From positions 4,384,001 to 4,448,000 of the forward strand of contig OZ244170.1 in assembly GCA_965216565.1 (NCBI GenBank): DNA of 64,000 nucleotides, read 5' to 3'. The DNA comes from Bythopirellula sp. GTDB taxonomy: Bacteria; Planctomycetota; Planctomycetia; Pirellulales; Lacipirellulaceae. Position numbers and translations under genes: made by a program. The notes beneath the pieces were generated by a model that had not been told where the DNA came from, did no database searches, and saw only the letters and a list, made by a program, of their open reading frames with translations. Below, one piece after another: positions 11,344 to 38,650 of this stretch (position 1 is the first letter of the stretch; each line of letters opens with the position of its first letter).

Positions 11344-12480
11344 ATGAGCACTGCAACCTCCTCCCCTCAGTTCGAATTGAAGCCTTACAAATCGCTGGAG
11401 AACGATGCCCTCGAGGCGCGAATCCAGGCGGTAAGAGACGAACTAGGTTCCAAACTTTTGATTCTTGGCCATCACTATCAACAAGACGAAGTGATCGCCA
11501 TGGCCGACCTGCGGGGCGATAGCTACAAGCTTAGCGAATTCGCCGCTGCTAGCAGCGAGTGCCGCTTCATCGCCTTCTGCGGCGTGCACTTTATGGCCGA
11601 GACGGCCGACATCCTGGCCAATCGTCCGGAAAAACTTGCCCAGCGCAGTGGCGAGCGGGTGCAGGTGATTCTGCCCGACATGGCCGCGGGCTGTTCCATG
11701 GCCGACATGGCAGCAATCGATCAGATTGAAGATGCGTGGGACCAATTGGGCGAAGTGATCGATACCGAGGACATCACGCCAGTTACCTACATCAACTCGG
11801 CTGCCAGCCTGAAGGCATTCGTGGGACGTCACGGGGGTATCGTCTGCACGTCGAGCAACGCCAAAGCCGCTATGGAGTGGGCGTTCGCACGCACAAGCCG
11901 GGTGATGTTCTTCCCCGATCAACACCTAGGTCGCAACACAGCGCTGGGCATGGACATCACCACAGACGAGATGCCGGTGTGGGATCCGTTTGCCGACGAA
12001 CTCGGCGGCAACGACGAAACGGAACTCAAGCGCAGCAAGGTGATTCTCTGGAAAGGCCATTGCAGCGTGCATCAAATGTTCAAGCCCGAGCATGTGGCCA
12101 TGTTCCGCGAGCAACACCCGGGCATCAAGATTCTGGTGCATCCAGAATGTCCACGCGAGGTGTTTGAGATGGCCGACGAAAGCGGCTCAACGGGCAAAAT
12201 CATCAAGGAAGTAGAGGCCGCCCCGCCCGGCACCAAGTGGGCCATTGGCACCGAACTTCATCTCGTGAACCGATTGAAGCAGGAACATCCCGAGCAAGAG
12301 ATTCACTTTCTTTCGCCGGTGGTCTGTATGTGCGCAACGATGTACCGCATCGATCTCGCGCACCTCTGTTGGAGTCTGGAAAATCTAGCTGCAGGAACTC
12401 CCGTCAACATCATTGAAGTCGACGAAGAGACGGCGAAGTGGTCGCTGGTTGCACTGGAGCGGATGCTCGAGGTGAAGTAG
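11344..12480 (+). CDS. nadA: Quinolinate synthase A
   Basis: GHHYQ, FCGVHFMAE, GCSMADMA, YINS, HPEC and CxCATM motifs. Confidence 0.97.
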   Translation: MSTATSSPQFELKPYKSLENDALEARIQAVRDELGSKLLILGHHYQQDEVIAMADLRGDSYKLSEFAAASSECRFIAFCGVHFMAETADILANRPEKLAQRSGERVQVILPDMAAGCSMADMAAIDQIEDAWDQLGEVIDTEDITPVTYINSAASLKAFVGRHGGIVCTSSNAKAAMEWAFARTSRVMFFPDQHLGRNTALGMDITTDEMPVWDPFADELGGNDETELKRSKVILWKGHCSVHQMFKPEHVAMFREQHPGIKILVHPECPREVFEMADESGSTGKIIKEVEAAPPGTKWAIGTELHLVNRLKQEHPEQEIHFLSPVVCMCATMYRIDLAHLCWSLENLAAGTPVNIIEVDEETAKWSLVALERMLEVK

Positions 12481-12485: not shown

Positions 12486-12507
12486 CGGCGAGTCTACGAC
12501 TCGCCGG
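12486..12507 (+). repeat. REP-like hairpin (family A, leader degenerate)
   Basis: CGGCGAGTC-TAC-GACTCGCCGG. Confidence 0.85.
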
Positions 12508-12517: not shown

Positions 12518-12985
12518 TTAAGACACGACGCGAGCCTTAGCATAAGGCGCATCCACAACCGTCGCGCTGCTGCGTACCCCCTTCTTGTCTAGGTGCTTTT
12601 TCAACAGCGCGATGTTCATGTTATTCGCCTTATACATGGCATCGAACACGTCGCCTGCTAGGGGCACCGAACCGACCAACGAGTCCATTGCCACATTGCC
12701 GATCATCCGCGCGAGCACCCAGTTCGACGCACCTAATCTCTTCGCTTGGATGACAATCCAAGTAGAGAGTGCCGCAGAGATGGCGTCACCAATTCCAGGG
12801 ATGAGACCAACGATGGTATCCCAGCCAATCTTATAATTCGTGCCCGGCAACGTTATCGAACTATCTAGCCAAACGCTCAGCTTCTCGAGCTGTGCGAGCG
12901 TCCGACCCACGTCGGCGGGTTCGTTAAACCATTGTTCAAATCGAGTAAACATATCCTCGTATCTGGCGGCAGTTGCAAAACTCAT
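12518..12985 (-). CDS. DUF4112 family membrane protein
   Basis: LDSSITLPGT..IGWD.IVGLIPGIGD...GSVPLAGDVFD..YKAN..N. Confidence 0.85.
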   Translation of the reverse strand: MSFATAARYEDMFTRFEQWFNEPADVGRTLAQLEKLSVWLDSSITLPGTNYKIGWDTIVGLIPGIGDAISAALSTWIVIQAKRLGASNWVLARMIGNVAMDSLVGSVPLAGDVFDAMYKANNMNIALLKKHLDKKGVRSSATVVDAPYAKARVVS

Positions 12986-13110: not shown

Positions 13111-13199
13111 CCGGCGAGTCGTAGACTCGCGGCTAGTTGTTGAAACAAGCAGCGAACAAATTCAGAAATTGCAATAGCCGCGAGTCTACGACTCGCCGG
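13111..13199. repeat. Pair of family-A REP hairpins (13111-13135 minus; 13175-13199 plus)
   Basis: Identical TAGCCGCGAGTCTACGACTCGCCGG copies in inverted orientation. Confidence 0.95.
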
Positions 13200-13674
13200 G
13201 AGTTGGTTCGCCCTCGAACCACGTCACGCCACGATGACGAGGCAGGTAGCTAATCACTAAATACTCGAAATGGCGACGATCCTTCACCCGCTTGCGACTT
13301 CCTCCCTTGGAGAGCCACTTGCGTTGTTGAACCTTGTTTAGATCCAGAGTCATGCGACGTTTGATCGATTCGCTAACCCGCTGCCACGGTCTGTCATGCC
13401 GCCAGCTAATGAGGCAATGGATATGACTCGCGTCGCAAGCAACTCCACGAGTTTGCACGGATAGATATTTACAGCCGTCCAGAATTCCAAATAGAACTAA
13501 TTTCTGCACTTGCTCGCTAAACTCAACGATTGAGCCGTCAGCCAGATTCCGTCGGTAGCACTGCGCCATGTGAACATCCGCTGCCAGCACGCCTTGCTTT
13601 CGTCTAACATACCCTTTCTTGCGATCAGGCATCCATGAGCCGTAGGCGTGGTAGGTGAAGAGATAACACGGCAT
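13186..13674 (-). CDS. HUH/Y1 nuclease, REP-associated tyrosine transposase (RAYT/TnpA-REP)-like
   Basis: 162 aa; N-terminal YLFTYHAYGSWMP, HUH motif HIH, C-terminal W..GG and candidate catalytic Tyr (EYLVISY); flanked by four identical hairpins. Confidence 0.75.
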   Translation of the reverse strand: MPCYLFTYHAYGSWMPDRKKGYVRRKQGVLAADVHMAQCYRRNLADGSIVEFSEQVQKLVLFGILDGCKYLSVQTRGVACDASHIHCLISWRHDRPWQRVSESIKRRMTLDLNKVQQRKWLSKGGSRKRVKDRRHFEYLVISYLPRHRGVTWFEGEPTPGES

Positions 13675-13683
13675 GGTTTCCCC

Positions 13684-13817
13684 CCGGCGAGTCGTAGACT
13701 CGCGGCTAGGGTAGAGTGGGATAATATACTAATGTACATTAGTATGGCAGATTGGGGAACGTCTTGCAATACTTCATGCATAGCTTCGAAGATAGCCGCG
13801 AGTCTACGACTCGCCGG
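13684..13817. repeat. Pair of family-A REP hairpins (13684-13708 minus; 13793-13817 plus)
   Basis: Identical 25-mers bracketing the RAYT promoter region. Confidence 0.95.
13726..13769 (-). promoter_or_regulatory. Sigma-70-type promoter of the HUH gene overlapped by a 20-bp palindrome
   Basis: TTGCAA-N17-CATACT on the minus strand; ATACTAATGTACATTAGTAT at 13726-13745. Confidence 0.6.
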
Positions 13818-13820
13818 GGC

Positions 13821-14816
13821 CTACTCTAACGGATCACCCTTCTTCCTCCTCAGCTTCACAATCGGCGCGAGCGAGAGCAACAGAAACACACTCAAACCAT
13901 AAATACGACCGTAGTCGAGCTCAGAAGTTGTGAGCCGACGCACATCCTCTAGCTCCAGATCCTCACCACCATCAACGGTCAACAGCGCGACAGCGTGCTT
14001 GTGGGAAATCGGTAAACCTAAGAACTGCACGTACCCGTCAGCAAAAGCGACGTTAATCCCCCGCGTTGACCTATAGAAAAAGCCTTCGTCCACCTCGTAG
14101 CCAAAGTTGTCTGTCATGGGGGGATTGGTCAGGAGTTCGACCGCTTCGTCGGAACTCAGATCTTCCGGCTTCGCCCAGGGCACAGCTTTGTGCGAGGCCT
14201 CGATGAGCATGATCGTGTCGGCCGTGCCGTCCGTGATCTCGTTTAACTTCCGGCCTCGCCCCGGTGGCCACATCGTCTGCTCGCCGACGATGGCGAAGTA
14301 ATGAGTGACATTGCTGGGAGTGATATGCGAGGGGCAATTAAACAGCGGATCGAAGTTATAGTTGAGCAGTGTTTTCTTGTTGGCAGGACTGTCCCAGGAT
14401 TCATTTCGCTTGAATTGAGCATAGAACTGCGAAGATTCAAGATAGGGTGCGATCCAGATTCTCCAGCTCTGTAGATGGTCGCTGTTCGGATTACTTTGTG
14501 CGCTCGCCGGGAGGGTGTTATGAACGCTTACATAATTGTGAAGTCCTAAAGAGAGCTGTTTCATATTGTTAGTGCAGGTAAGACGGGCTATACCATATCT
14601 GACATGGGAAGTTGCTGGCAGAAGCAAAGCTGCCAGCACACTCAAGATAATGACCACAGCCAGCCACTCAGAAAAAGATGTCCGAGGTCGTCTTAACCTA
14701 AGCCACAGTAGCCAAAAGATAAGACATACGGCAACAATGCCTACGCCGCCGAAAGTCGCCAGCGCGGAGGCCAATAGTGCAAACGCCCAAAGCATTGTCG
14801 TGATGCGGAACTCCAT
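13821..14816 (-). CDS. DUF1559 (SBP_bac_10) domain membrane protein
   Basis: LLLPA...CTNNMKQLSLGLHNY...SWR..I.PYLE...NVAFADG. Confidence 0.9.
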   Translation of the reverse strand: MEFRITTMLWAFALLASALATFGGVGIVAVCLIFWLLWLRLRRPRTSFSEWLAVVIILSVLAALLLPATSHVRYGIARLTCTNNMKQLSLGLHNYVSVHNTLPASAQSNPNSDHLQSWRIWIAPYLESSQFYAQFKRNESWDSPANKKTLLNYNFDPLFNCPSHITPSNVTHYFAIVGEQTMWPPGRGRKLNEITDGTADTIMLIEASHKAVPWAKPEDLSSDEAVELLTNPPMTDNFGYEVDEGFFYRSTRGINVAFADGYVQFLGLPISHKHAVALLTVDGGEDLELEDVRRLTTSELDYGRIYGLSVFLLLSLAPIVKLRRKKGDPLE

Positions 14817-14848
14817 GCTGTTAGTTTAGCAGAGCTTTCTGGGATGCG

Positions 14849-14934
14849 CCGGCGATCTGTCAGATCGCGGCTATTCTTGATAGATCGCGCGTTACCACGG
14901 CTGCATGAATAGCCGCGATGCGATGCATCGCCGG
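14849..14934. repeat. Pair of family-A REP hairpins with TCT/AGA and TGC/GCA stems
   Basis: 14849-14873 minus; 14910-14934 plus. Confidence 0.9.
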
Positions 14935-23886: not shown

Positions 23887-23940
23887 TAGTCGCGATCTGA
23901 CAGATCGCCGGGGGCCATGCGATGTGTGGCATCGCGGCTA
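23887..23940. repeat. Tail-to-tail REP doublet (family A + B)
   Basis: TAGTCGCGATCTGACAGATCGCCGG + revcomp TAGCCGCGATGCCACACATCGCATGG. Confidence 0.9.
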
Positions 23941-23982
23941 TTCTTGTGTGTGCTAATTCTACTAACATGGTAGAATAAAGTT

Positions 23983-24186
23983 ATGCACCAAGACCGCAAA
24001 GTTATCATTCGAAAGTCAACACTTGCCGAGCAGGGTAATGAGACGGACCTCATGCACCTCTCTCCCGGCGAGAGGATGGGCATGATTGAACAGATTACAA
24101 TCGATGCTTGGGCCATGAGAGGCGAGAATATTGCTGAACAAAGACTACAAAGACATGTTGTCTGCCTTAAACGAGGCGGGAGTTGA
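23983..24186 (+). CDS. Small hypothetical protein, partner of downstream nucleotidyltransferase
   Basis: 67 aa; TG-G-TAGAAT 6 nt upstream; overlaps the next gene. Confidence 0.7.
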   Translation: MHQDRKVIIRKSTLAEQGNETDLMHLSPGERMGMIEQITIDAWAMRGENIAEQRLQRHVVCLKRGGS

Positions 24187-24586
24187 GTACCTCGTTGTTG
24201 GCGCATTTGCGATGGCTGCCCATGACACACCTCGGGCAACCGTAGATATCGATATTTGGGTACGCCCCTCCAAAGAGAACTCACAGAAAGTGTGGAAAGC
24301 AATAGTCGAATTCGGTGCGCCACATAGCGGAGTGAGCGTCGATGACTTCAGCACACCCGATACGATTTTCCAAATTGGTGTTGCACCTCGGCGAATCGAT
24401 ATTCTGACTTCAATCTCAGGCGTTGAGTTTGAGGAGGCTTGGGTAAATCGGATGCACTCTACAATGGAGGCACTTCAAGTTCCCGTGCTTGGATTCGCCG
24501 AATTGATAGCGAACAAGCGCGCTTCAGGCCGTCCGAAAGACCTGGTTGACGCTGACTGGCTGGAAGAAAGACGCGGGAAAAACTAG
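24131..24586 (+). CDS. Minimal nucleotidyltransferase-fold protein
   Basis: YLVVGAFA...PRATVDIDIW...IDIL...NKRASGRPKD..D. Confidence 0.8.
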   Translation: MLNKDYKDMLSALNEAGVEYLVVGAFAMAAHDTPRATVDIDIWVRPSKENSQKVWKAIVEFGAPHSGVSVDDFSTPDTIFQIGVAPRRIDILTSISGVEFEEAWVNRMHSTMEALQVPVLGFAELIANKRASGRPKDLVDADWLEERRGKN

Positions 24587-24592
24587 TGTGCC

Positions 24593-24892
24593 ATGGCTAG
24601 CTCACCCGACAAAGCGCCGTTTCGCTTTTCGCTGCGTGCTCTGCTACTAACAACCACAGCGATCGCATTCTTAGCGGCATTGGGTGGTAGGGAATCGGGC
24701 AGAGTGTATCTGATGGTAATTCTGCTCGTCCTAGGATGGAGTGCTGTCACTGCGAGTCTTCTATCATCTGTGAGTCACGCGGATGTTCCAGGTTGGTTTA
24801 CCATTGCCCGATTAACGCTACTCTCGATCCTTGCCGTCATTTTCGGGCTATTGCTTTTGGACGTAGTGGCCCTCTACATCTACGATTCCTGA
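24593..24892 (+). CDS. Small membrane protein with FRFSLR leader
   Basis: Three hydrophobic segments; N-terminus paralogous to 25065 ORF. Confidence 0.75.
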   Translation: MASSPDKAPFRFSLRALLLTTTAIAFLAALGGRESGRVYLMVILLVLGWSAVTASLLSSVSHADVPGWFTIARLTLLSILAVIFGLLLLDVVALYIYDS

Positions 24893-24947
24893 GCTTACTT
24901 TGCGCTCGGGACGATGTAAGTGTGAGTTTAAATTCGACATCGAAAAG

Positions 24948-25021
24948 CAGCCGCGATGCCACAGTTCACTCGCCGAGGCGAGCATCGCATGGCCCCCCGG
25001 CGATCCGTAAGATCGCGGCTA
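24948..25021. repeat. Tail-to-tail REP doublet (B with loop insertion + A)
   Basis: CAGCCGCGATGC-CACA[18 nt]-GCATCGCATGG; CCGGCGATCCGTAAGATCGCGGCTA. Confidence 0.9.
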
Positions 25022-25064
25022 TTCTTCTGTGTAGACCGCTAGCCAGTGTTACAATATACGTGCC

Positions 25065-25472
25065 ATGGCTAGCCCACCAGACAACACGGAATTTCGCTTT
25101 TCGCTGCGGTATCTGTTTGGAGTGACAACAGCGATTGCAATCGTTGCTGCTCTTTGTGCAGGTGACTCTGATCTCGCAATGACACTTCGGCTCCTAATAG
25201 TTAGTTCGTCGGTAATTAGCATAGTTTTTTTAACTCCCGCAGCTTTCTGCAGTTGGCTTGCACAGGTCGACAATAAGTATCTGCGTTTCCCTCTCTTCGT
25301 TTGCTCATTCTGCGGTGTCATGTCTCTGCTGGTTGGAACGGTTTACTATTTGGGTCAAGAAACGTTCTACTACGGAGTCTCGTCATCTACTATCTGGGTA
25401 TTCGTTCTGGCTGGACTTAGCTTGTGCGGACTTGCAGTTTACGTTCGTAGCCGATATGCCCGTCGAAGCTAG
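25065..25472 (+). CDS. Small membrane protein with FRFSLR leader
   Basis: Four hydrophobic segments; TACAAT upstream. Confidence 0.75.
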   Translation: MASPPDNTEFRFSLRYLFGVTTAIAIVAALCAGDSDLAMTLRLLIVSSSVISIVFLTPAAFCSWLAQVDNKYLRFPLFVCSFCGVMSLLVGTVYYLGQETFYYGVSSSTIWVFVLAGLSLCGLAVYVRSRYARRS

Positions 25473-25507
25473 CGTATCGAGTGCACGCTTTTTCTCATCT
25501 ATCTCCA

Positions 25508-25561
25508 TAGCCGCGAGTCTACGACTCGCAGGCCCCCCGGCGACGCGTAGCGTCGCGGCTA
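25508..25561. repeat. Tail-to-tail family-A REP doublet
   Basis: TAGCCGCGAGTCTACGACTCGCAGG + CCGGCGACGCGTAGCGTCGCGGCTA. Confidence 0.92.
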
Positions 25562-25740
25562 CTTAATGCGCACGGATAAACTGCCCGCTAGCCCCGCTAG
25601 CACTCCTGCCTCCACGATTTTCTCTCCAGTCGCAGCACCTAGGCTGCCGATGTTAGCGACGATGGCACGGAACGCTGAAGCGATCCTCGCTATTGCCAAT
25701 TGAAAGGGGGGCCACCTTTCATTGGAATCTTATCTGCAAC

Positions 25741-26841
25741 ATGCGTGGGACGCTGCTCACTATCGCTGCTTTGGCCTGCTGCGTCGTTCTCTCGACGACC
25801 GGATGCCATCTGGTGCTGCCCAAGGTTTCGCATCAACCGGTGATTCGCAATCCGTTTCCGCAGTTGAGCCGTGTCGCGGTTGCACCGTTTTTCAACCATA
25901 GCGACGAAGCGACTCTCGACGCCCGTCAGTTCTCGATGGCCTACTTTGCCGAGCTGCAAGAGATTCCCGGCTTCGAGGTTGTGCCGCTCAATACGGTCGA
26001 AGAAGCAATCATTCGTCACCAAATCGATCTCAACGGACCGGGCGAAGCGCGCAGGCTTGCCGAAATTTTGGGCGTCGATGCTGTCGTGGTGGGCGGCGTC
26101 ACGGACTATACGCCCTATTATCCCCCACGCTGCGGACTGCGTGTGGAATGGTACACGGCCAACCCCGGCTTCCACGAAATCCCTGCCGGCTACGGCTTGC
26201 CTTGGAATACACCGCAGGAAGAGTTCATTCCCGATTCGCTCGTTTACGAATCGCAGATGGCACTGGCCCGCGCTCAGATGGCCACGCAAACCCCCGACTG
26301 CACAGGTGGCACGCACGCACTACCGGCACCTCCCATGGCCACAGAGGAGCCGCAATCCAGCGACCCGTTTGAGGCCGACGACCTACAACTCGCCCAAGCA
26401 GAGGAAGAATTATTCGAACCTGAAATGAACGAAGTGCCAGCAGAGGAGTTGTCTGCAGAAGGTATTACGAGCGGTTCAGAACAGACAACCCTAGAAGGCG
26501 GAGCAATCGCTACAACCGACATGTTGCCTACGAACTGGCCGGATGAAAGCTGTTTCGCACCAGCAGCACCGCAAGCAAACCGACCTGCTTGCGTGCCCAA
26601 TCATGGGCCGGTTTTGTCGCACACACGCATCTATCGGGGCACCGACCCAGACGTAACAGACGCTTTAAAAAGCTATGTTTACTACCGCGACGATGCTCGT
26701 TTCGGGGGTTGGGAATCGTACCTGCAGCGGAGCGACGACTTTGTTCGCTTCTGCTGTCACAAGCACATCGCCGAGATGCTGTCTGCGCGCGGAGGAAGTC
26801 GCAAAACCCGTGTGGTGTGGCGCTGGCCGGACGACCGATAG
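25741..26841 (+). CDS. Hypothetical lipoprotein
   Basis: Lipobox-like LSTTGC; VAVAPFFN...LGVDAVVVG CsgG-like segment. Confidence 0.75.
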   Translation: MRGTLLTIAALACCVVLSTTGCHLVLPKVSHQPVIRNPFPQLSRVAVAPFFNHSDEATLDARQFSMAYFAELQEIPGFEVVPLNTVEEAIIRHQIDLNGPGEARRLAEILGVDAVVVGGVTDYTPYYPPRCGLRVEWYTANPGFHEIPAGYGLPWNTPQEEFIPDSLVYESQMALARAQMATQTPDCTGGTHALPAPPMATEEPQSSDPFEADDLQLAQAEEELFEPEMNEVPAEELSAEGITSGSEQTTLEGGAIATTDMLPTNWPDESCFAPAAPQANRPACVPNHGPVLSHTRIYRGTDPDVTDALKSYVYYRDDARFGGWESYLQRSDDFVRFCCHKHIAEMLSARGGSRKTRVVWRWPDDR

Positions 26842-27090
26842 AGTTTTCTAGGGCCAGATGCACTCTTGCACAAATTCGGTACGTTCGTTTCGACGAGCGA
26901 AGCCAGTTCAAGCGGTTTTGTCTTGCCCTACCCGAATCGCCGATTGGCCTGCCCGTGGTCAATTCGATCAAGTCGTTGGCGACAGACCTCGCCGCGGCAG
27001 ATCACCTCCCGCACGCCCTTGCTGCCACGGAATCGGCAACGTGGATGCATGGCTGCCAACAGACGCCTGCCGCACTGGAGCTGCAAAGTA

Positions 27091-27333
27091 GTGAACGACG
27101 ACGACATCAATGTACTTGCGTTAGTCAAGGGAAGCGAACGTTACATCTTTTTGTTCGACGATACCCAGCGCGCCGAGGCCCTGCGCACCCTGGGTCGCTA
27201 TGCCTCGAACCCAGATCTAAGCTTCACTTGGTACGACGCGGCTGTGCTCAGCCAAAAGGTGCGCCAAACGGGACCGGCCGACAAGTCGCTCAACCGCATC
27301 AGCCTGCCACTGCCGTCGGATCTCGAGGAGTGA
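27091..27333 (+). CDS. Small hypothetical protein
   Basis: GGAG SD then GTG; DINVLALVKGSERYIFLFDD...FTWYDAAVLSQK. Confidence 0.7.
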   Translation: MNDDDINVLALVKGSERYIFLFDDTQRAEALRTLGRYASNPDLSFTWYDAAVLSQKVRQTGPADKSLNRISLPLPSDLEE

Positions 27334-27405
27334 TAGCCCACGGCTCGGCCGTGAGATCGATGCGGGTTGGTCAGTAATCCCCCGCCCAAGGCGAGGGCTA
27401 AGACG

Positions 27406-28305
27406 ATGCAACGACAGATATCTCGATTCCTTCAATACCTGCGAGTGGAGCGGGCTTCTTCGCCTCATACGCTGAAGGGCTATCGGGAAGACCTGGAAAC
27501 GTTCGTCGAATATTTCCAGGATGAGGACGGCGACTGTCCCGATCCGGCTGAGCTGACGGCTGTCGAACTCCGCGGTTTCCTCGCAGCGCTGCACGATGCG
27601 GGTTACGCGAAGACGTCGATCGCTCGCAAACTGGCGTCGCTGCGTAGCTTTTATCGCTTTGGTCAGCGTGAGGGCTGGGTCGATCACAATCCGGCCAAGG
27701 CATTGCGAAACCCACGCAAAGCCAAAAAGCTGCCGCACTTTCTTTCAACCGCTGAGATCGGCAAGCTGCTTTCCGCCCCGCCAAGCGACGAACCTCTGGG
27801 CTTGCGCGATCGGGCGATTCTAGAAACGCTCTACTCCGCTGGTCTACGTGTCAGCGAGTTGGTGGGCCTGTGCGATGGCGATCTCGACTTCGCACAGAGC
27901 ATTGTCCGCGTCCGCGGCAAAGGCCGCAAAGAACGGCTTTCGCCCCTGGGTTCCTATGCCACGCGAGCATTACGGCGGTGGATGAAAGCAAGAGTCTTGT
28001 CGTCCAAAGAACCGCACGACCACAAAGCGCCGGTGTTCGTCAACAAATTTGGCACACGTCTGACGGCTCGCAGCGTGGGACGTATGTTGGAAAAACATCT
28101 ACAGGAGGCGGGGCTCGACAATCGCACAAGTCCCCACACGCTGAGGCATAGCTTTGCGACGCATCTGCTCGATCGTGGCGCCGACATTCGTAGCGTGCAA
28201 GAACTCCTAGGTCACAAGAGCCTGGAAACTACGCAAATCTACACGCACGTCAGCACAAGCAATCTGCGAGCGGCGTACGAGAAGGCTCACCCTCGGGCGA
28301 GGTAG
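27406..28305 (+). CDS. xerC: Tyrosine recombinase XerC
   Basis: [52 protein letters not shown]. Confidence 0.9.
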
Positions 28306-28352
28306 CCGTGTGTTGCATGGCAACACGGCTGATCTTGTACCTAATTGACTTA

Positions 28353-28424
28353 TAGCCGCGATGCCACAGTTCACACGCCGAGGCGAGCATCGCAAGGCCC
28401 CGGCGATCCGTCGGATCGCGGCTA
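28353..28424. repeat. Tail-to-tail REP doublet (B with loop insertion + A)
   Basis: Near-identical to 24948-25021. Confidence 0.9.
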
Positions 28425-28696
28425 TTCTGCAAAATACCTGTAACACCGTCTTGGGTTTTACGCTTGAACTCTCAGAGTAAGCCGTGTCGTCCCCGACCAT
28501 AGCTTACCGGAGAAATGCGTCGGCGGTGGTGGTTTTACACGTAAGCAGGCAACTTACCGGCACGAGGGGTGCCGGCCACATACCGCCGGCGTTTTTATCT
28601 AAATTTGCCCACGAATTCGATCTCCTCGGCATAACCCGAACCCTCAGGATGTTGTATTTCGAGACTTTGTTGACCACAGGCATCCCGCGACGTAGA

Positions 28697-28744
28697 TATT
28701 TAGCGACACCGTTATCTAGCGACACCGCTATTTAGCGACGCCTA
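28697..28744. repeat. Three tandem 16-bp direct repeats upstream of the NtrC-family regulator
   Basis: tatttagcgacaccgt / tatctagcgacaccgc / tatttagcgacgccta. Confidence 0.8.
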
Positions 28745-28905
28745 GGGCCGACCCTCCCCACCGGTAGCCACCAGTTTTGCGCCACTCCCCAGCGCCTTGC
28801 TACCGCTTCTCCTAGGCAAACGAAAACCAATTAATCGCATAGACTTGCGTTGGGGAGATCTGTTTTCAGGTTCCCGAGCGCCAATTGCCAAGAGAAGAGG
28901 GCGCG

Positions 28906-30282
28906 ATGCTAGAGGGATCCTTACTAGTTGTAGATGACGATCGTCAATTACTTGAATCGATGAGCGAATGGCTCGGCGGCCAAGGTCTCAAAGTCGATAC
29001 TGCTGACGGTTATGGCCCTGCACTCGAACAGCTCACTAAGCAAAAGTACGAGATGGTGCTTGCTGACGTCCGTCTTGGCGATGGTGATGGCTTCGATCTT
29101 CTAGAGCAAGTCCGCCGCAACTACCCGGAATGTCACGTCGTGCTGATGACTGGCTATGGCGACCCCGATGCCGCCGTGGAAGCTGTGCGTGCGGGGGCAG
29201 CCGATTATCTCACCAAGCCACTAATCAGCGACGAGCTGCTCTTGGTAATCGAGCGCGTGTTTAACGAACGCCAGGTAATCGCCGAGAACCACCAACTCAA
29301 GAAGCAACTCGATAAGCACTACTCACTCGACAACATTGTCGGCCAAGATTCAGGAATGCTGAAGGTATTCGAAATGGTCGAGAGTGTTGCCGAAACCAAG
29401 GCCACAGTGCTCGTCACCGGTGAGAGCGGTACTGGTAAATCGATGATTGCTCGCGCGATTCACCGTCGTAGTGATCGCAGCGGCAAACCGTTTATCGAAG
29501 TTGCCTGCGGAGCGCTTCCAGAGAATTTGCTCGAAAGCGAACTGTTTGGTCACGTCGCGGGCTCATTCACGGGGGCTACCAGCGACAAGACGGGTAAGTT
29601 TATGCAGGCCAACGGCGGCACGATCTTTCTTGACGAAATCGGCACCGCCAGCCCGGCTTTGCAGGTCAAGCTATTGCGAGTTCTGCAGGAGCTTCAATTC
29701 GAGCAGGTCGGCGGCAGCAAAACCTTCAAGGTCGACGTTCGTGTGATTCTAGCCACCAACGAAGACCTGGCCGATGCTGTGGCTGAGGGCCGATTCCGAC
29801 AAGACTTGTACTATCGTGTGAACGTCATCAATGTGGAATTGCCCGCATTGCGGCAACGTCGCACCGACATTTCGCTATTGGCTCAAACGTTCCTCGATCA
29901 GTTGCGGGACGATACCAACCGCAACGTGCACGGTTTTAGCGAAGAGGCGTTGGCGGTGCTTGAGAACTACCCCTGGCCTGGCAATATTCGCGAGCTGCAG
30001 AATGTCGTCGAACGTGCTGTGCTGTTGGGTAAGAACGAGGTGATTACTCCGTCCGATTTGCCACACGAACTAGTCGGCGGAAATACAATCAGCGTTTCGC
30101 GCGTGGGTTCGATGACGCTGAAAGAAGCTCTTGAAGAACCGGAACGCCAAATCATCCTCGACGTGTTGGAAGCGAACAATTGGAATCGTAACGCAACGGC
30201 CGACTCGTTGGGCGTGAATCGAACGACGCTATACAAGAAGATGAAGAAGCTGGGCCTCGAAGACCGTCAGACTATCAACTGA
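28906..30282 (+). CDS. Sigma-54-dependent response regulator (NtrC/AtoC family)
   Basis: Receiver domain, GESGTGKS, GSFTGA, FLDEI, FRQDLYYR, Fis-type HTH. Confidence 0.95.
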   Translation: MLEGSLLVVDDDRQLLESMSEWLGGQGLKVDTADGYGPALEQLTKQKYEMVLADVRLGDGDGFDLLEQVRRNYPECHVVLMTGYGDPDAAVEAVRAGAADYLTKPLISDELLLVIERVFNERQVIAENHQLKKQLDKHYSLDNIVGQDSGMLKVFEMVESVAETKATVLVTGESGTGKSMIARAIHRRSDRSGKPFIEVACGALPENLLESELFGHVAGSFTGATSDKTGKFMQANGGTIFLDEIGTASPALQVKLLRVLQELQFEQVGGSKTFKVDVRVILATNEDLADAVAEGRFRQDLYYRVNVINVELPALRQRRTDISLLAQTFLDQLRDDTNRNVHGFSEEALAVLENYPWPGNIRELQNVVERAVLLGKNEVITPSDLPHELVGGNTISVSRVGSMTLKEALEEPERQIILDVLEANNWNRNATADSLGVNRTTLYKKMKKLGLEDRQTIN

Positions 30283-30590
30283 GCGGGAGTTCGTAGAGCT
30301 AGCTAAGCCCTAATTCCCCGCGAGAGGTATTTTTGAAGTTTCTCGCGAATTCTTTTACGAATTGCTTGATTCCCCGGTGGGACCAGCTATAGTAACGGGA
30401 CATTGAGCGAAAGCGCTCTACCAGTTTTAGGCCCGGTTTTTAGGTCGGGCAAAACACGTTTTACCACTATTTTAAAGAATTTGAGTCGACCTACTGTAGT
30501 CAATCTCTTGCAGCTTTCTTAACTGCACAACCGGTTGAGACGAATCTCGTCTCCCGTTTTCACCATTATCTCTGCTACTAGGTAGGTTTT

Positions 30591-31736
30591 ATGTATACGT
30601 CATATGGGGACAGCTGCGCGCGCCATTTTGGTAGGGCAGCGGTGTTTGCTTGGGCTTGTTGCGTGCTCAGCATGATGAACACTTCCGTCACGCACGCTTC
30701 GTTTTTTCATTCTTCGGACGAACCGTCCATTGATATTCGGGTCGTTGATAAAGCGGGACCGATTTGGGTCGGTGACAAGTTTGTTAGCTCAGGTGAATTT
30801 GATTTGCCGGCGCTAGAGATCTACGAAACCTTTAAAGACCACGACAGTGGCGGTCCACTTTGGGCCGACGTCGAGATTAAAGTAACGGTCCGACGTCCTA
30901 GCGGTCATGGTGGCGGCTGGGGTGATTGGGGTTCTGGCTGGGGTTCAGGTTGGGGCTCAGGTTGGGGCAATAACAACAACGGCAATTCTGGTTGGGGCAG
31001 CGGTGGCTCGGGCTGGGGTAGTTGGGGTGGTTCCAATAGCGGTGGCTCGGGCTGGGGCGGCTGGGGCAGTAACGACAACGGCGACTCCGGATGCGGAAGC
31101 GGCGGATTTGGCTGGGGTGGTTGGGGCGATTCCGGCTGCGACTCGGGCGGTTCTGGCGATTCAGGCTGGGGCGACTGGGGGAGCGGTGATTGGGGCGGTG
31201 GTGACTGGGGTGGCGGCGATTGGGGCTGGGATTGGGGACATGACGATCCACCAGCAGACCCTAACTTTTCGCCCGAAAGTCTCATTATTGGCATCGACAA
31301 GTTTGTGAAGAACAAGACCAGCTCGCATTGGTTCGATTTCCGGATCGGTTTAGGAACTGGCTTGGGCGACGACTTTGAACCTTCCGATCCCGAAGACGGA
31401 CTCTACATTCTCTCCGATCCCGAACCGAAAGAAGTCACTTCGTTCTACGACGATCTTCCTGGATCTAGCGGTCCAGAGTCTTCTGAAGAGTACGAAATCG
31501 ACAGGCTGCAATGGTATGCCGATGGGCAGTCGCGGCCAGGACAGGGTTACAATGACAAGAGCGTGTTCTGGTTTGGAGTTCACATCCCCGAATACCTATT
31601 CGAGCAAGACTCGCATGACTCGGACGTGTGGCACGCAAAGTTCACCATTCGTCAACACACGGGAATTCCCGAACCAGCAACTGGTATCATCCTGTTGATG
31701 GGATCTTCCGCATTGCTGCTCAGAAGAAGAGAATAG
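30591..31736 (+). CDS. PEP-CTERM sorting-domain protein with Gly/Trp-rich low-complexity region
   Basis: Signal peptide; (G/S/D)GWG repeats; C-terminus IPEP-hydrophobic-RRRE. Confidence 0.85.
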   Translation: MYTSYGDSCARHFGRAAVFAWACCVLSMMNTSVTHASFFHSSDEPSIDIRVVDKAGPIWVGDKFVSSGEFDLPALEIYETFKDHDSGGPLWADVEIKVTVRRPSGHGGGWGDWGSGWGSGWGSGWGNNNNGNSGWGSGGSGWGSWGGSNSGGSGWGGWGSNDNGDSGCGSGGFGWGGWGDSGCDSGGSGDSGWGDWGSGDWGGGDWGGGDWGWDWGHDDPPADPNFSPESLIIGIDKFVKNKTSSHWFDFRIGLGTGLGDDFEPSDPEDGLYILSDPEPKEVTSFYDDLPGSSGPESSEEYEIDRLQWYADGQSRPGQGYNDKSVFWFGVHIPEYLFEQDSHDSDVWHAKFTIRQHTGIPEPATGIILLMGSSALLLRRRE

Positions 31737-31784
31737 CCAAGTACGCAACTCAAGTACTCAACTAAGAGGGCTAGCGTAACTGCG

Positions 31785-32204
31785 TTAGCCCTCTTGTTTC
31801 AATTGCGTCGGCTCGACATGCCGCAGGTCTTCAGCGAGAAAGTCGTTGGGAATCGGCTTGTCGTTCTCGGTAATGCGATACTGCAAACATCGCTCTTTGG
31901 AGTTCCAAGTCATTTCTCGAATCACGCCGGTGCGCGGCGTGTTGCGTTTACCGCGTGAGAGCACTTCTACCCAGTCTCCAATTTCGTAGCCTTCGCCGGA
32001 AACTTCTTGCCAGAGGGTGCGCTTCACTCGTAGTCGTGCGTCACCGTAGTAAAGATTGACGAATTCCCCCTGCTCGCCCTCGCGTCGAAATACTCGCATG
32101 CTGGGAATCATGTTCCGAGCTAGCTCAACATCTTCGGGGTGGAGCCACTCGTTGCCATCTTCGGGCCACCAGGGATAGTAGCCGTATCGCGGTTCAATTT
32201 TCAT
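31785..32204 (-). CDS. Hypothetical protein (DUF6960-like, SH3-like)
   Basis: 139-aa ORF, YGYYPWWPEDG..W.HPED. Confidence 0.65.
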   Translation of the reverse strand: MKIEPRYGYYPWWPEDGNEWLHPEDVELARNMIPSMRVFRREGEQGEFVNLYYGDARLRVKRTLWQEVSGEGYEIGDWVEVLSRGKRNTPRTGVIREMTWNSKERCLQYRITENDKPIPNDFLAEDLRHVEPTQLKQEG

Positions 32205-32421
32205 GGTGCCATCTGTTCCAGGTCCGCCCGACGTGTCCCCTGTTCCTACGGGCGGGAATTCACTCGTTGCCTCTCCCCTAAGAATACCGCAAAACGCTCA
32301 CCAAGGCCAGTTTCTAACGGTTCTGCGGTTTGAGCAGGCTCTCAGTTAACACCCTGAAACGAAGGGGCAACCTATACTTGGAAAGCTCAGTCCTTAGTCC
32401 CCTGCAACCAAGCCCTCTCCC

Positions 32422-33924
32422 ATGAATCTACACGATTTTCTCGAACATCACGGCATGTCGGCCAATCCGTTTGCCGATGAAGACGCTCAAACCGACCCGG
32501 TCTTTCAGGGGCGTTGCCGGACGAGCACGTTTCATCCTAGTTGGGACAAGGTGTATGGCGACCCCTCGTCGCCAGCGACTTCGATTGTGTTCGGTGAAAA
32601 GGGTGCTGGCAAAACAGCGATGCGGTTGCAAATCGCCGCCCAGATTGAAGAGCACAATCGTGAGTCCCCCGATAACAAACTATTTGTCATTGACTATGAC
32701 GACTTCAACCCGTTTCTCGATCGATTCGCTGATCGGCTCAGTTCCCGTAAGCGTCGCAAGCCAACCAAGGTGCTTGCCGAGTGGAAAGTGTGGGATCATC
32801 TGGATGCCATACTTTCGCTGGGAGTGACGGACACGGTTAGTAAGTTACTAAAAGTTCGTCAGGCAAGAAACGAATCCGCAAACGATCTGCCCGAAGATGC
32901 TGTCAAGCGACTGGACCGCTTCCAGCGTCGCGACTTGCTCTTGTTGGCAGCCTGTTACGACAGCTCGTTGACCGAGTCCTTCGATACGCGGTGGTATCGG
33001 TTACGTAAGAAATTGAAGTACCGCCCCTGGCAAAGTTGGGCGATTCGAGGTCTCGGCATCGTGACCAAGGCGGCAGTGCTAGGCTTCATTGCCTACACCA
33101 AGAATTACGAGTTGCTTTGGACCAGTGTGTGGCCTTGGCTCATTATCGCTCTGGGCTGGGCGCCGTGGATGGCACAGGTGTGGCGATGGTGGATGCAGGC
33201 TTGGGGCGTTTCGCGAAATCTGCGTTGCGTCACCCGAGACGTCGGTCCATTGCGAAAAGTTCTCATGCAGTTTTCTGGCTCAGAGATCAACAATCAACCG
33301 CTTCCTAATCGCGCCCGCAGCGACGATCGTTACGAATTGCTGTACAAATTCCAGGGCTTGCTCAAGGCACTCGGATTCAATGGCATCGTGGTGTTAGTTG
33401 ACCGGGTCGACGAGCCGCACCTGATCGATGGTTCCCTGGAGAATATGCGCGGGCTGGTATGGTCGATGCTCGACAACAAGTTCCTAAAGCAACCTGGCCT
33501 GGGCTTGAAGATGTTGTTGCCCATCGAACTCTCTGATTTTGTCGAGCAGGAAGGACACGACTTTTTCCAAAGGGCTCGACTGGACAAGCAAAACATGATT
33601 CCTTCGTTAGAGTGGACGGGGCAATCGTTGTATGATTTGGCCAATGCTCGTCTGCAGGCATGTAGCGACAATGGCGAGGGCGTAGGGCTACAAGATTTGT
33701 TTGAGGATGAGATAGGGACCGCTCGCCTAGTCGATGCGTTCGCCTCGCTACGAGTTCCCCGGCATCTGTTCAAGTTCCTCTACCAACTCCTGATGACACA
33801 TTGCCAAGCCCATACCGACAGCGATCCGGCCTGGCAGATCGACTCTGGCACATTCGAAGCACAGCTAGCACTCTATCGGCGCGACCAAGAAGCTACAGAT
33901 CGTGGCCTGGTACATGGGGCTTAG
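32422..33924 (+). CDS. Membrane-anchored P-loop NTPase
   Basis: Walker A GEKGAGKT, Walker B-like VVLVDRVDE, two central TM segments. Confidence 0.8.
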   Translation: MNLHDFLEHHGMSANPFADEDAQTDPVFQGRCRTSTFHPSWDKVYGDPSSPATSIVFGEKGAGKTAMRLQIAAQIEEHNRESPDNKLFVIDYDDFNPFLDRFADRLSSRKRRKPTKVLAEWKVWDHLDAILSLGVTDTVSKLLKVRQARNESANDLPEDAVKRLDRFQRRDLLLLAACYDSSLTESFDTRWYRLRKKLKYRPWQSWAIRGLGIVTKAAVLGFIAYTKNYELLWTSVWPWLIIALGWAPWMAQVWRWWMQAWGVSRNLRCVTRDVGPLRKVLMQFSGSEINNQPLPNRARSDDRYELLYKFQGLLKALGFNGIVVLVDRVDEPHLIDGSLENMRGLVWSMLDNKFLKQPGLGLKMLLPIELSDFVEQEGHDFFQRARLDKQNMIPSLEWTGQSLYDLANARLQACSDNGEGVGLQDLFEDEIGTARLVDAFASLRVPRHLFKFLYQLLMTHCQAHTDSDPAWQIDSGTFEAQLALYRRDQEATDRGLVHGA

Positions 33925-34066
33925 TGGCTGAACCAGTGGCCCGCTGCCAGACGCACTTGACCTCGCTCGGGGGTTTTGGCAAACTTCCGCCGCGTTGTCT
34001 GGGAGCAGATTCTCCCGGGCTAGATTTCACTTTCAAAAGAGCTCCCACGGATGGGAAGTAGTAACC

Positions 34067-34684
34067 ATGAACAAGATGTTCCTGCTTTGTGCTGTTGCCA
34101 GTCTGAGTCTATTCACCCTGGGTTGTGGTGATACCGCGAGCGAGCCCGGCAGCTCGACGTTCGGTTTGCAACCGGCGGCCCCTCCCCAAGGAACGCAACC
34201 CGGCGATCCAGTTGGCCTAACCGTTCACGAGTTTCTCACTGCCATTCGCACCGGCGACACGCAAGCGTCCAGCTCTCGGCTGACGCCGCTAGCTCTACAG
34301 ATGATCAATCAAAACGACATGACCTTTGCGCCTCCGGCTAGCGAGAACGCCACGTTTCAGGTTGGCCAAGTGGAAATGTATGGACCCGACAAGGCCTCGG
34401 TCGATTCGATTTGGAGCGATCTCGATGCCGATGGTCAGCGCAACGAAGAGAAGATGACTTGGGCTCTGAAGCTCAACCAGGGTCAATGGAGAATCTCCGG
34501 CTTAATCGCCTATGTTGGCGAAAACCAATCCCCAGTGAAAATCAACTTCGAGAATCCCAGCGAGTTTATGGGAGGCAATTCGCAGCCTAAAACGGCGCAG
34601 CCCCCCCAACAACAGCAGCAACAACCTGGGTATCCGTCACCTCGCCAAGCGAGTCAGCCTACCCAGGACCCATTCCGGAAATAG
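34067..34684 (+). CDS. Hypothetical lipoprotein (NTF2-like core)
   Basis: Lipobox FTLGC; Q/P-rich tail. Confidence 0.75.
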   Translation: MNKMFLLCAVASLSLFTLGCGDTASEPGSSTFGLQPAAPPQGTQPGDPVGLTVHEFLTAIRTGDTQASSSRLTPLALQMINQNDMTFAPPASENATFQVGQVEMYGPDKASVDSIWSDLDADGQRNEEKMTWALKLNQGQWRISGLIAYVGENQSPVKINFENPSEFMGGNSQPKTAQPPQQQQQQPGYPSPRQASQPTQDPFRK

Positions 34685-34766
34685 ACCTCGATATGTTCAG
34701 CTCCAGAGCAGTGCAAACTGGAATTAGCCCACTCCGGAACCAGCATCGCACTGAATGGTTCGATAA

Positions 34767-34820
34767 TAGCCGCGATCCTACGGATCGCCGGAACCCCGGC
34801 GACTCCTAGAGTCGCGGCTA
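34767..34820. repeat. Tail-to-tail family-A REP doublet
   Basis: TAGCCGCGATCCTACGGATCGCCGG + CCGGCGACTCCTAGAGTCGCGGCTA. Confidence 0.92.
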
Positions 34821-35009
34821 TTGGCTCTTTTCGTGCTGCTTACCGAGTCCTAGCCAATCTCAATCTCCCCTACCTGTCTCCTAAGACTGCCTCCGGCCAG
34901 GATGTCGCGGAGCTGCATGCATTCTAGGTAATCTACGCAGCTTGGTAAACTGCTGCGTCGCTCCATGGTGGCTGATCTCGATCTTTCTTCGTCGACTCTT
35001 TTCAGCCTG

Positions 35010-35037
35010 TTGACACCCCTCCTGGGAATGTTATGGT
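35010..35037 (+). promoter_or_regulatory. Candidate sigma-70 promoter
   Basis: TTGACA-N16-TATGGT with extended -10 TG. Confidence 0.45.
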
Positions 35038-35274
35038 ATCGCCCTGGGTTCGCTAATTGGCAAAGTTTACCCAGACCTCAAACGCGATGACTCAAGCTAG
35101 TTGATGGATGCTTGCACGCTTTTAGAAAGCAAAAACAGGCAATCTACCGACCCAAGCACAATGATATTCGTACATACGGTTTGCTACCTGCCGTCGTAGC
35201 ATATTCGGTTTTTGAAGACGGCGTGAATTGAACTGTTAACCTTATTTCCCGTGATTTCCCAGAGGAGAACACAC

Positions 35275-35853
35275 ATGACGCGTACTATGACATGGATGAC
35301 TGCCTTCATGGTAGTCGTGGCAGCGTTTGCCACATCGACCGACAGCGCCTCTGCTGGCCTGTTCAACCGCAACAAGTGCAAGCCTGCTAAGTGCAAGAAA
35401 TCGCGTAAGAGCAACTGCTGCGAGCCTACAAGCTGCTGCCAGACTGCTTCTTACTGTGAGCCAGTTTCCAGCTGTGGCTGCGAAGCTGCACCTGCTTGTG
35501 GTGGCTGCGAAACTTCCGCTTGCGGTTGTGCTGCACCTGCCGCTCCTTGCGGTTGCCAAGCCTCTAGCTGTGGCTGCGAAGCTCAGACTTGTGGTTGTGA
35601 AGTAGCTAGTTGCGGTTGCGAGTCTTCCTGCAATTCCTGCTGCTTGAGCAAGCGTCAAGCTCGCAAAGCCAAGCGTAAGGGTTGCTGCGTTCAACAGTGC
35701 AGCACCAGCTGCAGTGCCTGCAGTTCCTGTGGTAGCCAAGCCGTTAGCAGCCCTTGTGGTTGTGCTGCCGGTAGCGACTGCGGTTGCTCAGGTGCCACCG
35801 AGAGTGCTTCGCCTGAGAAGGCTCCGGACCTGCCAGAAGACGCCGAGACTTGA
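35275..35853 (+). CDS. Secreted Cys-rich protein
   Basis: AGGAG SD, signal peptide ending ASA-GLF, CGCE repeats, basic patches. Confidence 0.85.
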   Translation: MTRTMTWMTAFMVVVAAFATSTDSASAGLFNRNKCKPAKCKKSRKSNCCEPTSCCQTASYCEPVSSCGCEAAPACGGCETSACGCAAPAAPCGCQASSCGCEAQTCGCEVASCGCESSCNSCCLSKRQARKAKRKGCCVQQCSTSCSACSSCGSQAVSSPCGCAAGSDCGCSGATESASPEKAPDLPEDAET

Positions 35854-35888
35854 ATCGGTCCTCGCTAACGCGAGACACTGACAATCAT

Positions 35889-35927
35889 AAAACCGGACTG
35901 TGTCTAAGTGGCACGGTCCGGTTTTTT
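35889..35927 (+). terminator. Intrinsic terminator
   Basis: AAAACCGGACTGTGTC-TAAGT-GGCACGGTCCGGTTTTTT. Confidence 0.8.
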
Positions 35928-36123
35928 CTGTTTTAGAGATAAAAGCCAATAACGATGCCACTGCGTTAGCGGTGTCGGGCACGACCTAACACTGTACCCC
36001 AGCTACAACCAATCGCCGTGGGCGACCGGCTCTTGCAGTGTCGAGGGACTCTCACACGCTCAATATTGGTTTGAATAATTCGAATCGCTAGGCGATCCTA
36101 GAATATTTGCCCACAATAGTGTG

Positions 36124-36837
36124 ATGGACGATAAGTGTAAAATCGCACACGCTAGGCTGCTGGCGGGCATCTGCCCTTGGTGTCGTCAGTATGTGTTGGC
36201 TGGCGAGGTCGAGGACGTCCGTGAAAAACGCAAATCTGTTTTTCATCAGAGGAATCTTGGGGGCAAGTCCATTCAACAATTTGTTGAGCAACGAGATCAC
36301 TTCTCTCTTCACTCCGTACTAACAATCTTAGAACAGATTGCCAGTAGAGTTTCTGACGTTCACAGTGATCGAGGAATGATTGGCTTATTATGTCCCAGCA
36401 CTATTCTTCTCTTGGGAAACAGCATAATCCTGATTGAAACTAGTGAGGTTGCTTCGTACTTAGACGATCCGTTTCAAGAAGATTCGTTTCAAGGAGATGT
36501 CGACCAGAACTCTCCCGTACTCGGAGTAGCTGATTATTTAGCTCCTGAGCAAGCTATAAGTAAGATCCGACCAGATGAGAGGGCCGACATCTATAGCCTG
36601 GGATGTATTTTCTTTTTTTTGCTAACTGGGCAGCCTCCCTTTTCTGGAAGCTCGATCTCGGAACGACTGTTGAAACATCAGACTGAAAAGCCTCCAAGTA
36701 TTCTACAGAGTTGTCCTGACGCCCCAGCTTGGGTTGAGCGAATGTGTGAGAAGATGCTGGAGAAGTTGCCCCAAGACCGATATCAATCGGCTGACGAATT
36801 AGTCGCAGAATTAAAGTCAAAACGAGAGGATAGCTAA
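36124..36837 (+). CDS. Degenerate Ser/Thr kinase (C-lobe only, pseudokinase)
   Basis: YLAPEQ, ADIYSLGC, LTGQPPF, DRYQSA present; HRD and DFG absent. Confidence 0.7.
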   Translation: MDDKCKIAHARLLAGICPWCRQYVLAGEVEDVREKRKSVFHQRNLGGKSIQQFVEQRDHFSLHSVLTILEQIASRVSDVHSDRGMIGLLCPSTILLLGNSIILIETSEVASYLDDPFQEDSFQGDVDQNSPVLGVADYLAPEQAISKIRPDERADIYSLGCIFFFLLTGQPPFSGSSISERLLKHQTEKPPSILQSCPDAPAWVERMCEKMLEKLPQDRYQSADELVAELKSKREDS

Positions 36838-36882
36838 CTGACCAGTACCCTTCAGGTAATAAATTGAAGCCAAGATCCTTGA

Positions 36883-38614: not shown

Positions 38615-38650
38615 TCCAGACTGCCCACTGTCTTCTGACTACTTGAGTCC

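Follow-up and report, generated by a model that had tools for sequence, protein, structure and literature searches.

A probable REPtron-type locus in a planctomycete, with a YLPxH-clade HUH/Y1 nuclease gene, TAG-led hairpins and a candidate LexA box

Introduction

Within the TnpA-Y1 superfamily, class 2 (RAYT) is defined by the signature Y---NP (Quentin et al. 2018, PMC6006769). Class 3, as outlined in that study, shows Y----Q, an extended N-terminus and CnGA-footed structures and ranges over Planctomycetes and Acidobacteria; the REPtron layout in planctomycetes is thus already known. For subclass 1.2, the study lists no REP. The third metal ligand is placed four residues after the Tyr, as Q131 in IS608 and N119 in RayT (PMC6006769). 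In E. coli, precise loss of rayT, its replacement by hicAB and the capture of neighbouring genes are described in PMC3333891, according to which strains without rayT retain the repeats. Why cells keep RAYT-like enzymes, and when these are active, is an open question (PMC5581495, PMC6006769). We describe here a locus in a window (the whole stretch of DNA that was analysed, 64,000 nucleotides) from Bythopirellula sp., which adds to this picture a YLPxH clade, candidate LexA control and strain differences bounded by hairpins.

Results

A predicted HUH/Y1 nuclease and its neighbours

The genes of the locus are as follows.

11344..12480, plus strand: nadA, the usual downstream neighbour of the nuclease gene lineage (context)
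12518..12985, minus strand: DUF4112 gene, between nadA and the strain-variable module (context)
13186..13674, minus strand: predicted HUH/Y1 nuclease gene, 162 aa, with H84, H86, Y143 and H147; YLPxH clade
13821..14816, minus strand: DUF1559 gene, missing along with the nuclease gene in near-identical strains
46034..46687, minus strand: gene whose ortholog in relatives is the immediate upstream neighbour of the nuclease gene (context)

An earlier note, made from the DNA letters alone, had described a 162-aa open reading frame, which we located at 13186-13674 on the minus strand, together with the sequence YLFTYHAYGSW, the HIH motif (at residues 84-86) and the C-terminal Tyr residues (Tyr138 and Tyr143) that it had mentioned. 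Its remark that tnpB is lacking agreed with the neighbours found, namely DUF4112, DUF1559, nadA and a mutY-like glycosylase gene. The source genome consists of 5.21 Mb in one contig, and a contig from one sequencing run, possibly of the source sample, covers 11574-24977 with 0 differences. Elsewhere in the window, 7787-9178 (plus strand) encodes a protein of 463 aa whose N-terminus is signal-like and whose repeats, about four units with CCCCKKKRSCFLS, are extremely rich in Cys.

Single-sequence searches of the nuclease protein against Pfam, NCBIfam, PADLOC and the PDB, and a search of its profile against PDB sequences, gave nothing relevant. PF01797 was matched by 33 of the 108 homologs that were aligned out of 120 listed, and the ESM Atlas returned Y1_Tnp clusters at 0.96-0.97. 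The AlphaFold model of the 162-aa protein (pLDDT 95.3) had E. coli RayT 4er8 as its first Foldseek match (E 4e-5), and a wide structure search (VIA) gave Z 13.7, 12.5 and 11.3 for 2ec2, 2vhg and 4er8 (rmsd 2.1-2.6, 99-119 residues aligned), the next match being at 9.2. The monomer model aligned through the Tyr helix (residues 1-157) with RayT and only to residue 134 with the IS transposases. These profile and structure searches bear out the HUH/Y1 fold proposed earlier; by its HUH motif, its Tyr and its modelled Y1 fold, the protein is predicted to belong to the TnpA-Y1 superfamily.

Conservation was counted over the 239 of 268 proteins that span all four sites. The residues H84 (237/239), H86 (236/239), Y143 (234/239) and H147 (231/239) were kept almost throughout, P145 in 218/239. 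Since Y143 is kept in 234 proteins and Y138 in 148, Y143 is likely the nucleophile. H147 lies four residues past Y143, at the position of IS608 Q131 and RayT N119; we infer that a His may replace Gln/Asn as third metal ligand, giving a putative three-His site, with ligand roles assigned by position in an alignment (the HHalign alignment stops short of the Tyr helix). A His third ligand would broaden the range of known HUH/Y1 active sites. Y-x-x-x-H is not unique to the clade, since five distant proteins also have it. Other class-3-like lineages (L062, L078, L067, L084 and L085) likewise end in Y-x-x-x-H.

The source genome contains three paralogs, 41-46% identical to the query and each with its own hairpin; one paralog, of the same clade, has hairpins with perfect stems. 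Counting identical proteins once, we found ten other, distinct loci adjoining nadA and nine at a proS/DUF4416 site, and no match was found in 72,556 plasmids or viral contigs. The gene is of low copy number, without recent duplicates, at a stable locus and off plasmids, as is characteristic of the RAYT type. A true IS200/IS605-like insertion sequence, with the hairpins as its subterminal ends, would accord with the two best VIA scores, which are IS200 transposases, and with a gene found at several loci in the phylum and missing at the nadA site of genome G011, where the neighbours lie 10 bp apart. We consider this very improbable, given that the source genome has no near-identical copies of the gene, that there is no adjoining tnpB and no YxxxQ, that residence at nadA and proS has been long and that hairpins are dispersed without the gene.

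Relation to class 3 TnpA-Y1 proteins

A profile search returned 917 representatives at E<=0.001, 105 of them at 1e-30. The earlier note had spoken of a planctomycete system, and 32 of the 33 genome loci indeed lie in records titled planctomycetes, the remaining one in a record titled Acidobacteria. For comparison with class 3 we used as proxies four distant matches (L066, L080, L081 and L086), chosen by the class 3 repeat of Table S1 in PMC6006769, in place of that study's own proteins. With the clade profile, scores were 25-70 bits for class-3-like proteins, no more than 13.6 for class 1 and 5.4 for RayT, and HHalign gave 99.5% (E 8e-23) to the class-3 set and 70-77% for classes 2 and 1. Against these proxies, the class 3 core profile and the extended N-terminal conservation were recovered.

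Since a tree with a joint clade at 99 had included the N-terminal insert, the tree was rebuilt on 124 shared columns. In this tree, the YLPxH clade was recovered at 100/98 and joined to class 3 at 96/90, and AU tests did not reject the alternatives of a joint group with class 2 (p 0.25) or with class 1 (p 0.22). Both trees used 14 of the 43 clade rows and omitted the long-branch rows L009, L010, L067, L083, L084 and L085. The sister group may consist of L062 and L078 (91/79). The RAYT identity claimed earlier did not hold: the Y---NP signature was present in 0/239 rows, which have YLPxH instead, and the protein likely groups with class 3. The Q at Y+5 of the class 3 signature Y----Q occurred in 6/239 rows, H at Y+4 in 231/239, and the CnGA foot of class 3 was absent from the flanking hairpins of this clade's loci. 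The branch is likely a Planctomycetota clade marked by YLPxH and sister to class 3 TnpA-Y1, judging from the aligned proteins.

Other Y1 genes of the source genome, L005 and L007 (G000:C1:881196 and 2751317), are of subclass 1.2 type (YIANQREHH) and stand between TAG-led hairpins of which there are dispersed copies; L007 has an internal stop.

A bulged, TAG-led hairpin family

The hairpins in the window are as follows.

12486..12507, plus strand: fifth copy, without a leader but alike in the upper stem, right after the nadA stop
13111..13135, minus strand: REP-like hairpin, outer downstream, at the left end of the strain-variable module
13175..13199, plus strand: REP-like hairpin, inner downstream, overlapping the nuclease stop codon
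13684..13708, minus strand: REP-like hairpin, inner upstream
13793..13817, plus strand: REP-like hairpin, outer upstream
14849..14934: leader-to-leader hairpin pair at the right module end (14849-14873 minus, 14910-14934 plus)
23887, 23916, 24997, 25508, 25537, 28400, 34767, 34796, 38590, 42550 and 46007 (span 23887..46031): further family copies

The four identical 25-mers reported earlier were present at 13111 (minus), 13175 (plus), 13684 (minus) and 13793 (plus). The unit comprises a 3-nt TAG leader, a 9-pair stem, a 3-nt loop and, on the 3' side near the foot of the stem, one unpaired C. The bulge had thus been rightly described, but it does not set the family apart, as E. coli REPs need a bulge (PMC8266576) and the same-clade paralog has perfect stems. 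Of the (n)TAGCC leader that had been called different, the nTAG part stands; CC is the foot of the stem, and TAG is shared with GTAG. Among 161 hairpins the leaders were ATAG (107), CTAG (25), GTAG (15) and TTAG (13), with one cut off; ATAG thus predominates and the GT[AG]G guide of class 2 is not the rule.

With 2 mismatches allowed, the window contained 17 matches to the pattern, where 0.07 were expected and 0/100 shuffles reached 17. The genome-wide count that the earlier note had suggested gave 39 exact matches, 57 when 1 mismatch was allowed and 91 when 2 were; a stricter filter kept 72 hairpins, 68 of them intergenic by rough gene calls and 16 within the window. Across nine pattern-free positions, pairing was seen in 38, 37 and 37 of 39 copies, compared with means of 20.8, 18.0 and 22.4 and maxima of 30, 28 and 33 in 2,000 shuffles, with T-A, C-G, G-C and A-T among the covarying pairs. 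This compensatory pairing indicates that the structure is conserved as the sequence varies. Most window copies differ in the upper stem from the four flanking copies. The hairpins showed no leading- or lagging-strand bias (37/35).

Hairpins were clustered: 11 sites lay in 33 kb, whereas 5,000 random placements averaged 3.4 and never exceeded 7. Ten copies fell within a block from mutY to groEL, which in five relatives is located far from nadA and had 0-3 copies in the stretches fetched. The enrichment at this locus is one-sided, and a second hairpin family shows no such excess around the gene that belongs to it; local enrichment is consistent with seeding by the enzyme and is no demonstration of it, and for the same two reasons spreading in cis was ruled out as a general rule.

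Searches of Rfam gave only two sub-threshold miRNA-like matches, on long inverted pairs. In Table S1 of PMC6006769, TAGCCGCG occurs once, in an unrelated subclass 2.4 GTAG repeat. The source genome (G000) contains at least five further TAG-led hairpin families, among them a CCGGAGGCA-type with about 40 copies and no gene assigned. High counts of the present hairpin type were seen in G021, G020 and G011 (84, 65 and 46); most G021 copies among those listed have one sequence, which suggests a recent burst in that genome.

Pairing of gene and hairpin across genomes

A TAG- or TAA-led hairpin was found within 250 bp of the gene at 29 of 36 genome loci (33 in relatives and 3 own) and at 61 of 80 metagenome loci, compared with 2 TAG-led hairpins in the 16,750 bases of the distal controls. 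This supports the view that relatives are flanked by cognate hairpins, and the layout of the RAYT type, a gene flanked by hairpins that are also dispersed genome-wide, was observed. A 26-nt variant hairpin occurred only in G016 and G018 among 27 genomes, and in each of these 3 of 5 variant copies flank that genome's nuclease gene. The closest metagenome homologs, L159 and L163, have the same 25-mer as the window. The co-occurrence of gene and hairpin, which the earlier note had suggested checking, is not tight: in six genomes of the same genus (G005, G010, G014, G015, G017 and G022; 87-97% complete), 11-32 copies of the window's hairpin type and no clade gene were found.

These hairpin-rich genomes would suit a bystander gene beside an old hairpin family that either persists because it functions as RNA or DNA or owes its mobility to a different Y1 enzyme, the module losses described below being host recombination or slippage between short repeats. 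The many other TAG-led hairpin families and Y1 genes of the source genome, and the second family without enrichment near its own gene, point the same way. We nevertheless judge it quite improbable, as the catalytic residues are intact, the four copies around the gene do not differ from one another, the hairpin variant goes along with the gene in G016 and G018 and the 25-mer recurs at L159 and L163. The earlier note had gone further and held that the gene generated the hairpins of the window: the evidence points both ways, with the six gene-less genomes and the differing upper stems against it, and the claim is unproven.

A candidate LexA box upstream of the nuclease gene

One further feature lies upstream of the gene.

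13723..13740, minus strand: candidate LexA/SOS operator (TGTAC-N4-GTATA); the predicted -10 hexamer that it overlaps (13723-13728) matches the consensus weakly

The palindrome TGTAC-N4-GTAYA, first spotted by eye and one of seven patterns tried, occurred in 14/79 upstream and 0/80 downstream regions, with shuffles reaching no more than 2. The Verrucomicrobia-type box, TGTTC-N4-GAACA, was present in 0/79 upstream regions. A matrix built from 12 sites of other genomes was scored on 4,104 upstream regions of the source genome and ranked the paralog first, an IrrE-like peptidase 2-3, Y-family polymerases 4 and 5, the nuclease gene 10, a radical-SAM gene 18, recA 47 and lexA 305. Against the background of these 4,104 regions, 7 of 8 full polymerase genes from five other genomes scored in the top 0.3% and 4 of 5 recA genes in the top 2%; a ninth, weak polymerase family match lacked a site, and the five main lexA genes scored 3.8-11.5. 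De novo motif discovery in the five other genomes, on 18 promoters of lexA, recA and polymerase genes, gave the consensus GTGTAC-N4-GTACAC; this motif ranked the source lexA 4 and the nuclease gene and its paralog 10-11, and exceeded the 99th percentile in 12/79 upstream compared with 1/80 downstream regions. One polymerase and the radical-SAM gene ranked low with it (677 and 1666), probably because their sites overlap the predicted start and are clipped by the scan window. The genomes used here are kin rather than independent trials.

TGTAC-N4-GTAYA, being common to lexA, recA and Y-polymerase promoters, is likely a LexA box, and we infer that LexA would bind 13723-13740; an XRE regulator and the IrrE-like peptidase, both box-bearing, could form an alternative switch. 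Of 38 genome loci, 11-18 have the box, as do 1-4 of the 41 metagenome loci, so that it is either lineage-limited or the motif drifts; it is absent from one source-genome paralog and from the closest genome relative, L012. It resembles the cyanobacterial RGTACNNNDGTWCB and the B. subtilis CGAAC-N4-GTTCG boxes (PMC3091678), and planctomycete LexA is said not to use the E. coli box (PMC3108266). A literature search that reached a minority of subscription journals returned no LexA motif for this planctomycete group and no paper linking RAYT, the SOS response and LexA.

The candidate LexA regulon of the source genome comprises lexA (G000:C1:2995300-2995460), recA, two Y-family polymerases, the radical-SAM gene, a Mg-chelatase-family (comM-like) gene, the IrrE-like peptidase and the XRE regulator, with further coordinates at 1138507, 2462117, 858183, 1038337, 3602867 and 197642. 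Candidate-box scores of at least 10 were also obtained for 6 of 20 class-3-like Y1 genes (L076, L077, L065, L066, L084 and L085), and damage control may therefore reach beyond the YLPxH clade.

Strain differences bounded by hairpins

Two strain-variable modules were delimited.

13111..14848: strain-variable module, 1,738 bp between same-strand hairpins, with the nuclease gene, the DUF1559 gene and four hairpins; left boundary as most simply drawn
23916..24996: second strain-variable module, 1,081 bp between the minus-strand hairpins 23916 and 24997

In contigs of two other studies (runs X5 and X6), 13067 is linked to 14849 by 43 other letters. These 43 letters equal 13068-13110 in length, and the simplest missing unit is therefore 13111-14848, which runs between successive minus-strand hairpins. 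Runs X5-X7 give no cover over the nuclease gene, and the evidence for its absence consists of the joining contigs; X5 diverges by about 1.6% over 7.3 kb. X5 also skips the 1,081 bases between the 23916 and 24997 hairpins, where 15 letters fit either side. This second module holds a small gene, a nucleotidyltransferase with a weak AbiEii-like match and a small membrane-protein gene. Close strains without the nuclease gene at this site have the 14849 hairpin copy. The leaderless copy 12486, with the gene's own upper stem, lies inside the contigs of both strains, which favours loss there. Such differences fit the known kind represented by rayT loss and replacement in E. coli (PMC3333891).

The related small membrane-protein genes at 24593-24892 and 25065-25472 share an RFSLR N-terminus and each lie between hairpins; the X5 strain differs in the region 25065-25472. 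The block mutY-pnt-xerC-like-groEL (14955-42335) separates the nuclease gene from the gene at 46034-46687, its upstream neighbour in most other cases, and is found elsewhere in five relatives. The idea that the nuclease gene had inserted this 31-kb block was unsupported: close gene-less strains already have mutY beside DUF4112, and one possible donor edge carries no hairpin scar. In G018 (C1:1521700-1581300), the usual upstream neighbour lies 59 kb off in inverted orientation, and one of the breaks is immediately upstream of the REPtron.

The two modules raise the question of an integron-like shuffler, in which a damage-induced enzyme would excise and insert hairpin-bounded gene modules, including its own gene and passengers. 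Among the joints listed, two strain differences within 19.5 kb are bounded on either side, exactly or nearly, by hairpins of the same strand, but these are the only two events, and 7-15 nt of shared sequence would be enough for ordinary deletion. Spacer divergence is locally high (6 differences in a 36-nt spacer vs about 1.6% overall) and the 11 hairpin sites in 33 kb are clustered; genome-wide, however, no atypical composition of hairpin neighbours was found (p 0.66). A DUF1559 gene lies beside the nuclease gene also in L012, L017 and L060, on the other side, but these neighbours are merely 35-38% identical, and similar matches lie 9 kb from the gene in G009. Of seven RFSLR-type small genes, three are within 300 bp of a hairpin, compared with 2.6% of all genes, in a test picked after two of the three cases were known. 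Integron integrases are under SOS control (PMC3108266), whereas precise rayT loss and hicAB replacement are known from E. coli already (PMC3333891). On balance, we regard a general shuffler as unlikely.

Discussion

The reading that we judge probable is a REPtron-type locus: a low-copy HUH/Y1 nuclease gene whose nTAG hairpins are likely bound, cut and rejoined as single-stranded DNA and which DNA damage likely induces through a LexA box. By analogy with E. coli RayT and IS608, H84, H86 and H147 would hold a divalent metal, and Y143 would attack single-stranded DNA near a folded hairpin to form a 5'-phosphotyrosine; the TAG leader would guide the cut, for which CT is the predicted site, and strand transfer would copy or recombine hairpins. 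LexA would repress the gene until RecA-ssDNA appears, so that the enzyme would be made when its single-stranded substrate is abundant. The gene would be long-resident at few loci (nadA and proS), gained and lost by hairpin recombination rather than by IS-like multiplication.

A stronger form, in which an SOS-induced three-histidine HUH nuclease uses bulged TAG-hairpins as single-stranded recombination sites and excises and inserts modules that include itself, seems to us unlikely. If true, a domesticated transposase would have given rise to an integron-like system, which would offer a first clue to the timing of REP-associated enzymes in the cell. For the REPtron-type reading, the LexA box makes the timing of RAYT-like enzymes testable, by inducing DNA damage and then following expression, hairpin circles and new junctions; without such tests, the locus is one further planctomycete REPtron of the kind outlined in 2018.

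The locus can be set beside four described systems. The integron integrase with its attC sites offers an analogy only: an SOS-controlled enzyme and folded single-stranded sites that bound gene modules (PMC3108266). The integrase is, however, an unrelated tyrosine recombinase, and cassette exchange is hypothetical here. IS200/IS605 TnpA proteins (IS608, ISDra2) share the modelled fold (VIA Z 12.5-13.7, residues 1-134) and a hairpin with a 5' guide, whereas YxxxQ, tnpB and identical copies are absent here. With class 2 RAYT and the E. coli REPtron, the locus has in common the core fold, a lone gene between inverted hairpin pairs, dispersed cognate hairpins, a bulged stem and a fixed locus with precise loss in some strains (PMC3333891, PMC3479197 and PMC8266576); it differs in lacking YxxxNP, in a profile score of 5.4 bits for RayT vs 25-70 for class-3-like proteins, in the preference for ATAG over GTAG (107 vs 15 of 161) and in having 39-72 hairpin copies instead of hundreds.

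Class 3 TnpA-Y1 differs in its Y----Q, where YLPxH with one extra residue ahead of the Tyr is found here, and in its CnGA foot, where an nTAG leader and a tighter stem with one bulge are found; the candidate LexA box finds no mention in the accessible parts of PMC6006769. The likenesses are the planctomycete range, the REPtron-like layout and an extended N-terminal region that follows strand 1 and has the motif T-x-G-[ST]-W, and the Solibacter-type hairpin rows of Table S1 also begin with AG-CCGCGA. The signature of class 2 is lacking, as are two of those of class 3; in its manner of working the locus resembles a REPtron, and a sister branch to class 3 is the most fitting name for it.
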